Below, in pieces: positions 21,001 to 27,000 of a stretch of DNA of 35,868 bases. Numbering within the stretch: the first letter of the stretch is position 1; every line of letters begins with the position of its first letter. Where the stretch lies: the IMG/VR virus record IMGVR_UViG_3300029735_000262, positions 1-35,868 of that record; one strand, written 5' to 3'. The DNA comes from a virus. Taxonomy: Duplodnaviria > Heunggongvirae > Uroviricota > Caudoviricetes. A program made the position numbers.

Positions 21001-24000
21001 TTGGGGTTCGAGGGGGCATTATTAATGTCCTAAATAGTTTCCTCTCTAAAAACTAATTTGTGTTAGGGAAATCATTAAATGAAATGAACCTTTTAGTACC
21101 CACTGTAAAATTCACTTCATTAATATTTAACCAAATACAATGAATGTTCCAAAAGATGCTAATGATATATTTATCAGAGAATCCATACGAGCCTTAATTT
21201 CTGGCGTATCCTCGACCTCAGTACGCCATTGATTGACTGCCTCAATCATATCTCGACAAAACACATCTATTTGCAACTGAAGTTTGCCATTTAAGTGATT
21301 TAAATGCACTTGGCAATTTGGCCTAGGTGGTGGTGTAAAATTAAACTGCATCATTCTTTTCCTGTTCTCTGGATCCTGTCCAGCATGTAAACAAGAACAA
21401 CGATACAGCCAAAAATCATCCGCATAAAATCGACACTGTTCATGTGTACCGGATGTATATTTATTTTCAAGATAACGAGAAACCCAATCTTTATACCATT
21501 TCCCTGTTTCACCCTTACCTATTTTGGGACGTTCAACGCTCCTGCAAATATCAGGCATAGCAAGAGCCATAAACAATGCCGCTAACCAATTCTCACTTTC
21601 AATTGAAGATTCAATTGATTTTATAAACCTTTCCATAACTCACCTTTATATTATTTGATGATTATATTTATAGCACAGTTACAATCATTTTCCGGAAAAT
21701 ATTTATTCATTTTGATATCCTATTTTTAGAATATCCTTTTTATCTCTATTGCATTGCGCTAATGCAGATAACAAACTCGCATTCAGTTCCAGGCTAGCAC
21801 CATATGTCAGTGGACTAGGTACAACTGGAATCGGTGTTTCAGAAGTCAGGCTGGCTGGCAGTGGTACCGCCGGAGTGTTCACGTAAACTGTCCGCGTACT
21901 TCCGCAACCGGTCAGCAGCGGCAGCAGGCACAGGACGTGAAGCACAATCATCATCCGCAACAGCCACTTTGATATCTTCCTGGGTTCTCTGTGACTCCAG
22001 TGCGATCTGCTGTTTTGCATGCTGGTTAGCCTCCAGAACTGTATTGACGATTTGTAGTGATTGCAGGACGTTATTGGTAATGGCTGTTGCTGATTCAGCA
22101 TTTCGTACAGCCTCATCAGCACGTTTCTTTTCGTGCTGATATTTGCTGTAGTAGTGGTTGGCAGACCAGATGAAAGAACCGATGACAGTAAAGAAGAATG
22201 CAGAGATAGCCAGCTTATAGCTCAACTTCATTTACCACCCCACCAGCCTCTTTAAACCGGGAAATCAGGTCACCGATTTTATGTTCATACTGACCGTAAC
22301 CTGCACCAGGTAACGACGCCCAGATATTGCTGCAACGATCGATAGCCTGACGAATATCGCCGCGATCAATCATCGGTAAAGCGCCACGCTCTTTAATCTG
22401 CTGTAATGCAACAGCATCCTGGCTTTTAGGAGAGAAGTCTGTCAGCCCTAACTGCTTGCGGTAAGCATCCCACCAGCGCGAAAGAAGTTGATAACGGCCT
22501 GCAGCTGTTGATTTGAGTTTCGGGTTTAGCGTGACAAGCTTGCGAGGGTGATCGGAGTAATCAGTGAAGAGTTCTCCACCGACAATAACATCATAACCGT
22601 GGTTACGTGTCGGTTGTCGCCCGTTATCCGTTCCTTCTGACCAAGCCACCATATCAAGGAAAGCTTTACGCTGGGAATTTAGTACCTGCATAAATTACTC
22701 CTTAGAGCCACCAAATTTGTTACCGATTACTCGCATTGCAGCCCCACGAATAGCATCGACACCGATCAGCCCCACCCCACCACCAATGGCAACAGATAGT
22801 GATTTAGGCCATCCGACATACTCAAGAGCGGATGCAAAAGTCAGCGTCAGAGCGCCACAGAGTAGAATTTCGAGTGTTTTTCGCTTCCAGCCGCCACCAC
22901 CGCCAAAATAGGCGATACGTAAACCAGCCATAACAATCGACATAATCACTGCGCCCAGCGGTGTGTCTCCACGCCACCAGCTCTGGACCAACTCCAGCCA
23001 GGTATTTGGGTTATGAGGCATTTGTAGTTATCTCTCACCTCGCAATACAGGAGGTGCAAATTGAGGGAACATCATGTACCGCAAATCAGAAGCGGAAACG
23101 TAAAAGAAGTCGAGCCAATGGCTAAGTACCAGATAGACCAAGCCCAACGAATACCAAGGCCTAGAAATGACAAAACCCGCTCGACGGCGGGTTTAAGTTG
23201 TGTGGCGAAGTAACCACTCTTAACACGATACAATAGTTTTTGCGTACGCGTTAGTTTTTTTTTACAATAAGGACACACAGCGAATAAGGGAAAACTATGA
23301 ACTTTTCTAATACCAAAAAAAACAATTTAACAAAGAAATGTCAAGTTAGGGCTTTTAATGTGAACCTTGACGGGAAGGGTAATTTATTTCAGCAAATATC
23401 AACAAATAATAAATTTGTACAGGGTTCCATAATCCAGTTATCAACTAACAGGCATTTAAAATTAAAAGAATTTAGCACTAAAGGTAATATCCATTACTTA
23501 CATTTTTCTTTATACAATCCGAAAGAAGAAGTGTCGATCACCCCAAATAAACCTAACACTAAAGATTTGTTAGATGTTGAAAATTTTGACAATTTACATG
23601 CCTTCTTTATGGTTAAGGATAATCAAATTGCTTCACTCCTTCAAATATCCACTAACTGGAGTGAAGTCAAAATAGCAAAAATCTTCAAATGCTATGGCAT
23701 AGATATTATACCGTCAGCTATCTTAAAGAAAAATGTAATCCAAAAAGTCAAAGATGATGGTTTGCGCGCTGTACATGTGAATTTCAACGTGCATGAATCA
23801 GATTTTGTTAACAAGCCTAGTTTCTTATCTGTGTTTGTAAAAAAAGAGCCAAAATTAAAACAAACAGGAATAAGTGGCCATTTTACTATCGATGCCAGAG
23901 GAAACCCTGCCGTTGCTGCATCAATTGAAAACAATCCGACGCCTTGGATATCTGATTTAAACAGTGACTTTTACTTTGAAACTAAAAAAGGAGAGAAAAT

Positions 24001-27000
24001 CACTAGCGATGACATGAAACTTACAAAGATTTACTACACGTTACCATACGGCTCGCAAACAATTTCCAGCAAATATGCTCATGAAATTTTAGAGCATTTT
24101 GTCACAAATGAGTTATAATATACTTAAAAACGGGGAGGCCATATGTTTAAAGATTATAACTGGACGGGAATTATAATTACCACAGGAAACTTCCTAGCCT
24201 CCTTCTTTTTCTCAAAATATCTCACAAACAGCTTAACAAATAACAATGACGCATTAAATCTTGTTGCAAATGTTTTCTCAATCCTATCCGGTTTTTTATT
24301 GCTAGTCATTACTATGTCTGGTGAGAACTCCTCAATTTCGAAATCACTTAATGCATTAGACAAAGCCAACCAGAGCACTCGATTTTATATGCGCTTTGTA
24401 AAAAGCTATACTCTATTCTTGATGTATATAATTACACTTGCATTAATATTTGTATTTTATCTTTTATCCAAGGATAAAACACATTCAGGTATTTATTTTG
24501 AATATACAAAAACCACTATTGCATATTCAATCTCATTTTTAACATGTTTCTCATTCATACAATCAACTTTCATTCCATTGAAAATAAAGGAATTGTTTGA
24601 AGAGAAGAAAAACATGAATACTTAATTAGAAGCCGCTGAAGCGGCTTCTGCAATCACCAAAACAAAATTGATATGCATCCCTCAACAAATCCCATTGCAG
24701 TTTGCAGCTCCTTCCTAATTGTGCCATCCGAGCATCTGCGTTTCTTCGCGATAGAACGCAGTGAGATACCTATAACAAAGTGAGCAATGATCAGTTCATA
24801 TTCTTCTGGTTTATATTTACGCAACCGCACCACACAACCGTCTATCATGATCCCTTCATCATCATCACACTGGAGGCGTGACTTTTTACCGTGTGGTAAA
24901 AGCCCCTTGAAGCCTGCCGCGATCGGCTGCCAGTCCACTCCGCTGTTATCTGCTGCTGCCCATGCTCCCCAGCGGTCCAAAACCTCGTACATATCACGCA
25001 TCAAATCTCTCCACAAAATCAGGCCAGCACACCAATTGCCAGCGCGCGATCGATAAATCGAAAAATTAGCTCCAGTTGGGAACCATACTTCTCTTCAAAT
25101 GCCACAGTGTCCGCATGCAACTCGTCGTGATGCTTTCTGCACAAAGGCAATACAAAGAGGTCATGCGCTTTTGTACCCATTCCACCCTGACAGTGGCCTA
25201 TCAAGTGGTGGGGATCATCAGCAGGCTTTCCACAACATGCACACGGCTGTGTCTTAACCCAGCGCGTGTACTTTTCATTAACCCAGCGGCGACGTTTTGG
25301 GCGTAACATAAAAGACTCCGGCGACTCCGGATCCACTTTCAGCGCCAGCACCTTTTTCGCCTTATCCTGGATGATGCTGGTGGCAGGAACCGAAGGCACA
25401 AGGTCACTTTCCCGGGTAACAGACGGCACAACAGGCTTCGGTAATCTCAGTGCCTTACGGGCTGCACTTTCCGGTAAGGCATCCGCCAGATCATTACGAA
25501 TCAGCCACCAGCACAGTTCCGGCATTGTCACAACGTGACTGTCATCAAAACCGAGATCCCGACGCACAACAGACAACACCCAGCGGGCACAGTTATCCGT
25601 TGCCATTGATTCCAGCCGTTCCGTGAACTGATCGCGCAGCTGGTTATCGCAGTGCCAGCACAGACGAATTGCTCCCGGCGCGTGTCGCATTGTGGTCATG
25701 TTCTCGCTGTGCCAGTTGGAATGAGGCCACTGACAGCCCTTTTCACGAAGTAACCAGCTTTCAAGACATTCCACGCCACCAGCACGACGGATCACTGCCT
25801 CATTGCGGAACACGGCGCGAACGGCAGGATCATCCGCCAGCGGTTGTGATGCCGCCGGAACGGCACCACTGGCGAAAGATGAATAACGTTCTGGCTCAGG
25901 CTCCAGCAGGACACGCCCCTGCATAAACAGGGGCATCAGCTCTGAACCTGGCCTGAACAATACGATCCCCATACGCGGGGCAATTTCAGGGGTCAGTAAT
26001 GCTCTCACGGTCACCTCAATGAACGGTATCGAGCAGCTTTAACAGCTCAGGGAATCGGGATTCGAAGAAATGCGGCTGCGTCTCGCGCGGATTTGCGGGA
26101 CTGGTGATGTTCTTGCCGAACATGCAGCCTTTCGCTGTCAGCGACCAGAATTTTTTGATGTTGTTAATCGCGGTACGGCTGTATCGTTCGCGTTGTTCAA
26201 CGATCCCCAGCTTCGCCATCTGGTGATATGCCTGATTAGCCGTCAGGCGGATACCATACTGTTTCAGCAGTGCACTCAGCGACAGCGTGGGGCGACTTGA
26301 GCCATCAGGCGCGTCAGCAGGAGCATCAATGGCATAGCGCGGTGCCAGATTCGGTAAGCCAACAGCCTCCTGAAGCTTCTGACAGGCTCCAAGCACTGAA
26401 GAGTTAGACAGGTTTAATTCCCGGCGCATAAAGTCCAGCAGAATCACACCAGCCTGCATCTTGTCAGCAGCCTGTCCGGATAATTTTTCCGGTGCACTGG
26501 TTACCATGTCGAAAGTACGGATCACCTTCAGATGGAATGACGGGCTGATCCACATTGCATAGGCATACACCAGTTCTTTGCAGACATACGTTCCCCGTTC
26601 ATTTCCCCCATGAATCACACTCACCGGGTCAACACCCAAATTCTGGGTGTTGGTCAATTCATGAACAAGCTCAACAGTTTGTTGGCTGGAAAGAAACTTT
26701 CCTGGCTCCTTGGTTCTGGCATTTGCACCAGATGCTACTGCTGCGCGATGCAGATCGTTCAGGCTGTAACGCCCATAAGCATCACGACGAACTTCAATAC
26801 CATCAATGACCATCAGATTATTCATACTTCGTTTCTCCTCTTAATCAGGCGGCTGCACCCGCCGGTTTCTCATACTTACTGATAGTGATCTCGACCTTCC
26901 CTTTCGGGATAACCGGTCCCCACTCCACCAGCATTCTTTTCACCTGTCTGTCGTCTTCCCACACACCCGCGTGGGTCAGGGCGTCAAACAGAGCCTTGTT

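Follow-up and report, generated by a model that had tools for sequence, protein, structure and literature searches.

A two-gene cassette with RexAB-like architecture beside the Q gene of an SfII/e14-like prophage: a candidate exclusion system in a separate sequence family

The RexAB pair of phage lambda was the first phage-exclusion system to be described, and its mechanism is still not settled. A study of Pseudomonas putida from 2026 counted only five Rex-like systems (PMC12894663). Lambda RexA consists of a globular domain (amino acids 1-139 and 248-279) that is split by a four-stranded dimerisation domain (143-234), and RdgC is its published structural relative (PMC11077077). A survey from 2025 located RdgC homologues just to the left of cI in lambdoid phages and suggested a RexA-like role for them (PMC12315714). 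Here, we analyzed a DNA stretch of 35,868 nucleotides (nt) representing IMG/VR virus record IMGVR_UViG_3300029735_000262 (hereafter, the window), which is an SfII/e14-like prophage located at tRNA-Thr beside proA, with its far end cut by IS26. Between the gene for the Q antiterminator and the lysis genes of this prophage, two genes (gene 1 and gene 2; Table 1) form a cassette on the opposite strand. We consider it reasonably probable that this cassette is a RexAB-type exclusion system, comprising a sensor and a membrane effector, that belongs to a separate sequence family.

The cassette resembles lambda rexAB in the order of its genes, in which a soluble protein precedes a membrane protein, in the sizes of the products (273 and 160 amino acids (aa), compared with 279 and 144 aa in lambda), in the basic character of the soluble protein (isoelectric point (pI) 9.2, compared with 8.6 for RexA), and in the four helices of the partner, for which both termini are predicted to be cytoplasmic (N-in/C-in). 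In addition, remote members of its family occupy the identical cI-adjacent slot of lambda-like phages. However, neither sequence nor profile similarity connects the two systems (PF15969 and PF15968; RexA structure, PDB 8TWQ), and the window pair is located antisense, with a promoter-like site of its own, between Q and a block that probably carries late-operon control signals, whereas rexAB is co-transcribed with cI from pRM. The P. putida pair RexABpp (PP_5643/PP_5644) also includes a partner with four transmembrane (TM) helices and without detectable RexB homology. In contrast to the window pair, RexABpp is located near the repressor, and RexApp matches RexA in HHpred at 98%, whereas the gene 1 family gives no profile signal; moreover, defence, DNA binding, RexB-dependent toxicity and membrane damage have been proven for RexABpp (PMC12894663).

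Pairs of a cytoplasmic protein and a four-TM protein are also found in actinophages, namely Sbash gp30/gp31, CarolAnn gp44/gp43 and Butters gp30/gp31 (PMC6426596, PMC6426606, PMC7542560); as in the window, the repressor is not always a neighbour of such pairs. In Sbash gp31, the central loop, which is cytoplasmic, is conserved and functionally important (PMC6426596), and the corresponding loop of the gene 2 family carries the conserved sequence NQxxRFxMRF. The actinophage pairs are expressed from the prophage, as the window pair may be, judging from its promoter-like site. However, their hosts are Actinobacteria, their RexA-like proteins carry DUF4747, which matches no member of the window family, and the roles of the two proteins are reversed in Butters. 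RdgC-fold proteins, like RexA, occupy the cI-adjacent slot (PMC12315714), and phage RdgC proteins were retrieved with the gene 1 model, as described below; however, RdgC (PF04381) shows no sequence match to gene 1 and forms a ring-shaped DNA-binding dimer of proteins of ~300 aa, and no membrane partner of RdgC was found reported in the literature examined. Kiwa, which the original prediction had listed among the systems to be compared, likewise pairs a four-TM protein (KwaA) with a soluble protein (KwaB, a DUF4868 protein). This identity was rejected, because the gene order is reversed in Kiwa, with the membrane protein first, and the cassette has no DUF4868, Pfam or PADLOC match.

If the cassette is a Rex-type system, the lysogen would transcribe the pair, antisense to the late genes, from its own promoter-like site, TTGCGT-17-TACAAT. 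The gene 1 protein would probably dimerise, bind DNA or an intermediate of phage replication or recombination, and sense infection. The gene 2 protein, a small inner-membrane protein with four modelled helices, would expose its termini and its conserved basic central loop to the cytoplasm. By analogy with RexAB, Sbash gp30/31 and P. putida RexABpp, the triggered gene 1 protein might interact with the gene 2 protein, which would then open or disrupt the membrane; by the same analogy, the membrane potential would collapse, the infected cell would stop growing and the invading phage would fail. Other family members appear to replace rexA-rexB beside cI, and the window subfamily may have moved into a variable cargo slot beside Q.

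Predicted folds and membrane topology

The coordinates, strand and lengths of the two open reading frames (ORFs) given in the original prediction were reproduced, as was their antisense placement relative to Q (PF06530) and the holin gene (PF05106). The genes indeed form an AT-rich island (guanine-plus-cytosine (GC) content 0.325 in gene 1 and 0.296 in gene 2, compared with 0.509 in the whole window), and the 24-nt spacer that precedes gene 2 contains the expected strong ribosome-binding site (RBS). In an E. coli chromosome that is 99.9% identical to the window, both coding sequences are annotated in RefSeq as 'hypothetical protein'. We compared the genes with an 87%-identical copy in a different prophage (locus L002 of our set) and obtained ratios of nonsynonymous to synonymous substitution rates (dN/dS) of 0.079 for gene 1 (dS 0.56) and 0.064 for gene 2 (dS 0.79). 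Homologues formed 59 clusters for gene 1 and 136 for gene 2; the named sources were all Enterobacterales, and every source name was 'hypothetical protein'. On these substitution patterns and homologues, the ORFs are real genes under strong purifying selection and not chance ORFs.

Gene 1 had been described as lacking any recognizable motif, and no match was found for it in Pfam, NCBIfam or PADLOC; it falls in PHROG family phrog_23561 (function unknown), and sequence-profile searches of the PDB were empty. Comparison with RexA by structure prediction, which had been proposed as a check, was informative. An AlphaFold2 model of gene 1 (predicted local distance difference test (pLDDT) 78.6; predicted template modelling score (pTM) 0.72) was searched against 48,164 chains, and RexA and RdgC were ranked first and second. 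The model is composed of a beta-rich N-terminal block (residues 13-131), a middle block of four strands and helices (139-229) and a C-terminal block of a strand and a long helix (243-271). Since the order of these elements is co-linear with the RexA plan, the predicted model fits the two-domain fold of RexA and RdgC, in which a four-stranded dimerisation domain is inserted into a split globular domain. When the model was compared with BFVD using Foldseek, three uncharacterised siphovirus proteins (expectation value (E) 1e-8 to 1e-5) and phage RdgC proteins (E 8e-4 and 4e-3) were retrieved. No catalytic-looking constellation of residues is conserved in the wide gene 1 family, which fits a binding or sensing role better than an enzymatic one. 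Two BFVD entries (A0A8S5S8L2 and A0A8S5S8H0) come from one uncultured virus, Siphoviridae sp. ctylc9: a 314-aa protein is the top viral fold match of gene 1 (E 1e-8), and a 172-aa protein matches the fold of gene 2 weakly. These modelled similarities hint at a further Rex-like pair.

For gene 2, AlphaFold2 predicted four long helices (residues 7-33, 35-62, 71-110 and 117-159). The earlier claim of four clear TM helices thus holds for the helices themselves and only partly for their hydrophobicity, as only helices 2 and 3 are strongly hydrophobic in this copy (Kyte-Doolittle 19-residue means of 2.3 and 2.55). Under the N-in/C-in arrangement, 10 lysine and arginine residues would be located inside and 3 outside, and this charge bias suggests that the termini and the central loop are cytoplasmic. 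Prediction thus yields the general features of RexB, namely an inner-membrane protein of ~150 aa with four TM helices and with cytoplasmic termini and central loop. The same topology has been proposed for RexB and Sbash gp31, and the central loop of the latter is essential for defence (PMC6426596); the gene 2 loop is both conserved and basic. A near-invariant stretch of ~30 residues (LTNNxDALNLVANVFSILSGFLLLVITMSGEN) extends from the end of the loop between helices 1 and 2 through helix 2. Identity among homologues was 58-89% for gene 2 and 52-82% for gene 1, which makes gene 2 the more conserved partner. Sequence searches with gene 2 gave only sub-threshold matches to DUF4064 and to generic membrane proteins, which we treated as compositional, and its sequence-profile search of the PDB was empty.

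Inheritance of the pair and competing explanations

We examined ~30 loci, which were reached from gene 1 homologues, gene 2 homologues and remote gene 1 relatives, and found the two genes adjacent and in the same order in all of them; the gene 2 ORF was present even where the gene caller had skipped it. The partners of two remote gene 1 relatives were gene 2 homologues (hhalign probability 99.8% and 99.6%). This constant adjacency, together with the homology of the remote partners, indicates that the pair is an old, co-evolving and mobile two-gene module. The family was found in Enterobacterales prophages of E. coli, Enterobacter, Klebsiella, Citrobacter, Serratia, Yersinia, Proteus and Providencia. 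The pair was also found outside phages, still intact, between metabolic genes (L014-L016) and on an island beside an integrase (L022). Co-occurrence at varied positions, for which the original prediction had called, was thus observed in the Q-adjacent slot, in the cI-adjacent slot and outside phages. A function of gene 2 in lysis was considered and was ruled out by its opposite strand and by its relatives beside cI or outside phages.

In Escherichia phages PhiR11_1 and 2G7b, as in prophages L017, L018 and L020, remote gene 1 relatives (19-31% identity) and their partners are located directly downstream of the CI repressor gene and share its strand. In these three prophages, which contain independent relatives, the pair follows a CI-type repressor (HTH_3 + Peptidase_S24) and is divergent from cro. 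The gene order in PhiR11_1 and 2G7b is cro, cI, a 283-aa gene, a 163-aa gene, N, sieB and ral, followed by gam and bet; read from gene order, this is the lambda map with rexA-rexB replaced by the family of the present pair.

Several results weigh against a Rex-type identity. BLASTP of gene 1 against RexA and of gene 2 against RexB found nothing. When profiles of the gene 1 family, including a broadened profile (effective number of sequences (Neff) 4.9), were aligned by hhalign with a 23-sequence RexA alignment, the probabilities were 0.4% and 0.2%, and that of the gene 2 family against RexB was 0.3%. The Pfam models for RexA, RexB, DUF4747 and RdgC and the PADLOC models for RexA and RexB matched no family member; for RexA (PF15969; PDLC02339) and DUF4747, this covered window gene 1 and 26 + 23 members of its family at E<=10, and for RexB (PF15968; PDLC02340), gene 2 was matched neither by sequence nor by profile. 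The structural match of gene 1 to RexA and RdgC comes from a predicted model and covers about half of the protein, and its margin over generic folds of the TBP-like and CENP-N-like kinds is only ~2 Z units. None of the Foldseek matches of gene 2 in BFVD reached significance (best E 0.03); among these weak matches, a membrane protein of 165 aa from Sbash, not confirmed to be gp31, was listed at rank 9 (TM-score 0.52). Helices 1 and 4 of gene 2 are weakly hydrophobic in this copy (1.12 and 1.39), although the family means are 1.86 and 1.64 and four hydrophobic peaks are seen across the family. Finally, the window pair is not next to the repressor: a ymfK repressor homologue is located at 30208-30882, and no rex-like pair follows it.

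The lack of sequence similarity to any known family, as originally stated, was borne out for RexA, RexB and the families of Pfam, NCBIfam and PADLOC. Among the 5027 defence-protein models of PADLOC-DB 2.0, none matched the window proteins at E<=1 or four remote relatives and partners at E<=0.1, so that neither gene was recognized when the proposed check with a defence scanner was carried out with these models; as positive controls, lambda RexA matched PDLC02339 at 9e-110 and lambda RexB matched PDLC02340 at 8.6e-61. An exhaustive scan of 1.84 billion cluster representatives with a hidden Markov model (HMM) of the gene 1 family yielded just 23 relatives, of which ~15 were full length (19-43% identity); none of them bridged the gap to RexA, RdgC or DUF4747. 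A literature search by protein accession and Rex-like terms found no description of the family. The proposed RexAB-like architecture is nevertheless supported by size, gene order, predicted fold and the remote relatives in the rexAB slot. Given this fold, size, order and type of partner, and given that the tests of sequence membership found no link, the cassette is best classed as a probable two-component system of the Rex type that belongs to a separate sequence family and occupies a new site, with a promoter-like site of its own.

The same anatomy would suit a scheme with the roles reversed, in which the RexA-fold gene 1 protein is a toxic or antiviral effector and gene 2 sequesters it until infection. 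There is a precedent in mycobacteriophage Butters, where the RexA-like gp30 is the effector and the membrane protein gp31 is dispensable for defence (PMC12894663). We regard this scheme as improbable, since the higher conservation of gene 2 and its near-invariant stretch over helix 2 point to an active effector in the membrane more readily than to a passive anchor, and since the membrane protein is the effector in 4/5 described Rex-like systems (PMC12894663). The precedent of lambda RexA, which binds DNA non-specifically and stabilises the lytic state of the CI-Cro switch independently of RexB (PMC11077077), raises the further idea that the pair regulates development of its own prophage, with gene 1, as a DNA-binding protein of RdgC/RexA fold, biasing the lysis-lysogeny switch or late transcription and gene 2 modulating gene 1. 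The position of the cassette, which adjoins Q and a conserved block that probably bears late-operon control signals, and the family members beside cI are in keeping with such regulation. However, the pair is mosaic relative to the repressor, replication and lysis modules and stays together at non-phage sites, a distribution unlike that of a regulator bound to one switch, and we give this idea little weight.

Genes for superinfection-exclusion membrane proteins are common in lambdoid phages, and gene 2, a small predicted inner-membrane protein whose expression apparently comes from a moron promoter of the prophage, could be imagined to act at the envelope (Sie or Imm type) by blocking entry of the incoming DNA, with gene 1 as an accessory. 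We consider this highly unlikely, because it would leave unexplained both the obligatory pairing with a cytoplasmic RexA/RdgC-fold protein and the occupation of the rexAB slot. The likeness to RexA might instead reflect convergence on a common alpha/beta fold, and the pair might then be a module with no relation to phages that serves host fitness or addiction, for instance a membrane stress factor or a pair of the toxin-antitoxin kind. Chance convergence of the fold does not predict the two top ranks of RexA and RdgC in the fold search or the three independent remote relatives in the cI-adjacent rex position, and such a module is in our judgement an unlikely explanation. The sensor and membrane-effector reading of the cassette thus remains the one that we favour.

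The cargo slot beside Q

In the close subfamily of the window pair, the cassette was always found antisense, with a PF06530 Q gene on one side and the lysis genes on the other, and the prophages that carry it are mosaic, with differing holins, endolysins, repressor modules and replication modules. The interval between Q and the holin gene had been proposed as a cargo site, and we found other antisense cargo at the same site in related prophages whose Q alleles are ~85% identical to that of the window. This cargo comprises an NA37 nucleoid-associated protein with a ~400-aa protein (L012 and L028), a 363-aa protein with a DUF4325 STAS-like protein and a 142-aa protein (L027), a pair of 343 aa and 179 aa located upstream of a methylase, tRNAs and stx2 in Stx2a_1447 (L026), and gp50/gp49 of phage SfII (L024/L025), which match PDC-M53A/B, a candidate defence pair of PADLOC (2e-32 and 3e-54). 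Across the loci seen, sequence comparison identifies the interval from Q to the conserved block as a cargo hotspot with cargo that is always antisense. At >=99% identity, the Q allele of the window was confined to 9 E. coli genomes, those with the cassette, and similarity to the ~85%-identity alleles begins 10-28 nt inside the 3' end of Q. Based on this distribution and this boundary, the Q allele and its cargo appear to be exchanged together.

A conserved block that is common to prophages with differing cargo forms the left edge of the slot. Part of it (window 23200-23270) matched 449/5426 E. coli genomes and phages SfII, mEp460 and Stx2a. The block probably carries control signals of the late operon. 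On the - strand, a terminator scan detected a hairpin ~150 nt upstream of the holin start, which is kept in SfII, the Stx2a phage and prophages of E. coli, Citrobacter and Enterobacter and is a candidate tR'-type terminator of the late operon. The block also contains an invariant GCGTACGC palindrome. At window 23236-23250, the - strand reads CGCGTACGCAAAAAC, in which the palindrome is followed by an A-run, and this arrangement is kept in E. coli, SfII, the Stx2a phage and prophages of Citrobacter and Enterobacter, all of which have a PF06530 Q; the palindrome could be a Q-binding element or a site for another protein. No convincing -35/-10 pair for the late promoter pR' was found on the - strand of the block. 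A 68-aa ORF at 23072..23278 (-) was dismissed as spurious, as both the terminator and the conserved non-coding block overlap with it.

A sigma-70-type promoter-like site directed toward the cassette spans the edge of the block, with its -35 hexamer (TTGCGT, 23240-23245) inside the block and its -10 hexamer at the edge of the cargo. In 8/10 distinct contexts next to the cargo, which share no homology from one cargo type to another, a TAnnAT hexamer was found exactly 17 nt past the invariant TTGCGT (TACAAT, TAGAAT, TAAGAT, TATATT, TAATAT and TACTAT). The site was not reported by a consensus promoter scan, because its -35 hexamer matches the consensus at just 3/6 positions. These contexts suggest a shared moron promoter, for which the flank would provide the -35 element and each cargo would bring the -10 element. 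In E. coli S1-ZIM-01-A (L012:262-990), IS1 is located exactly within the 17-nt spacer after TTGCGT and parts the NA37-containing cargo from the presumed -35 element.

At the other end of the cassette, the hairpin reported after gene 2 is present between the convergent stops of gene 2 and Q, with a 9-bp stem and without a U-tract on either strand. Hairpins were found at this position in four loci (the window, L002 ~7431-7454, L004 ~9330-9347 and L009 ~9329-9344), none with a U-tract; their sequence is nearly the same in the window and L002 and differs between subgroups. Since the sequence varies at a constant position, the structure rather than the sequence appears to be conserved, and the hairpin is a probable insulator or terminator. 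The cI-slot relative in L017 ends in a canonical terminator with a T-run.

Table 1. Coordinates of the cassette and of the flanking features in the window
Feature	Position	Strand	Description
Holin gene, lambda family	22695-23021	-	PF05106, E 5.7e-25; first gene of the lysis cassette
Intrinsic-terminator-like hairpin	23194..23173	-	AAACCCGCC-GTCGA-GCGGGTTT, then TGTCATTT; terminator scan
Conserved boundary block	23173-23255		~85 nt; left edge of the cargo slot
Promoter-like site, sigma-70 type	23240..23268	+	TTGCGT, 17 nt, TACAAT; read from sequence
Gene 1 RBS	23287..23292	+	AAGGGA; read from sequence
Gene 1	23297-24118	+	273-aa ORF; soluble basic protein, pI 9.2, 31.1 kDa; proposed sensor or activator
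Gene 2 RBS	24132..24138	+	GGGGAGG, strong; within the 24-nt intergenic spacer, four bases before the gene 2 ATG
Gene 2	24143-24625	+	160-aa ORF; four-helix protein, predicted inner-membrane; proposed membrane effector
GC-rich hairpin	24628-24649		9-bp Watson-Crick stem, loop TGAA, folding energy (dG) -16.6 kcal/mol; between the convergent gene 2 and Q stops
Q antiterminator gene	24654-25016	-	PF06530, E 1.5e-45; convergent with the cassette

Within the lysis cassette, the holin gene is followed by the gene for a glycoside hydrolase family 104 endolysin and then by spanin genes. A second AT-rich ORF, of 169 aa (window 21127-21636 (-), GC ~0.35), has the orientation of the late operon and is located between the spanin/lysC genes and the HNH/terminase genes; it falls in phrog_18591 (function unknown), has no match in Pfam, NCBIfam or PADLOC, and may be another moron. 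At window 987-1691 and 1-537, an IS26 transposase gene truncates the tail-fibre end of the prophage and adjoins an rfbB fragment, and because of this truncation, the prophage is probably defective at that end.

Implications for Rex-type systems

A wider interpretation, which we offer tentatively and hold with some doubt, is that the pair represents a previously unrecognized Rex-type superfamily, comprising an RdgC/RexA-fold sensor and a four-helix effector, that would be kin to RexAB at the level of the fold and interchangeable with rexAB at the cI slot. The site in the window would then be a dedicated, promoter-equipped slot of SfII/e14-like prophages between Q and the late-operon control block (invariant -35 in the flank and -10 in the cargo), in which anti-phage modules, namely this pair, the NA37-containing pairs, the DUF4325 trio and PDC-M53, may be swapped.

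If the Rex-type reading of the cassette is true, it would be a sixth Rex-like system, beyond detection by sequence and missed by the tested PADLOC 2.0 and Pfam models. A shared fold and architecture, built from sequences that differ entirely and present at both the cI slot and the Q-adjacent slot, would provide a natural comparison that helps to separate the essentials of Rex function from traits specific to lambda. In addition, the promoter-equipped cargo hotspot beside Q could be mined for further systems.

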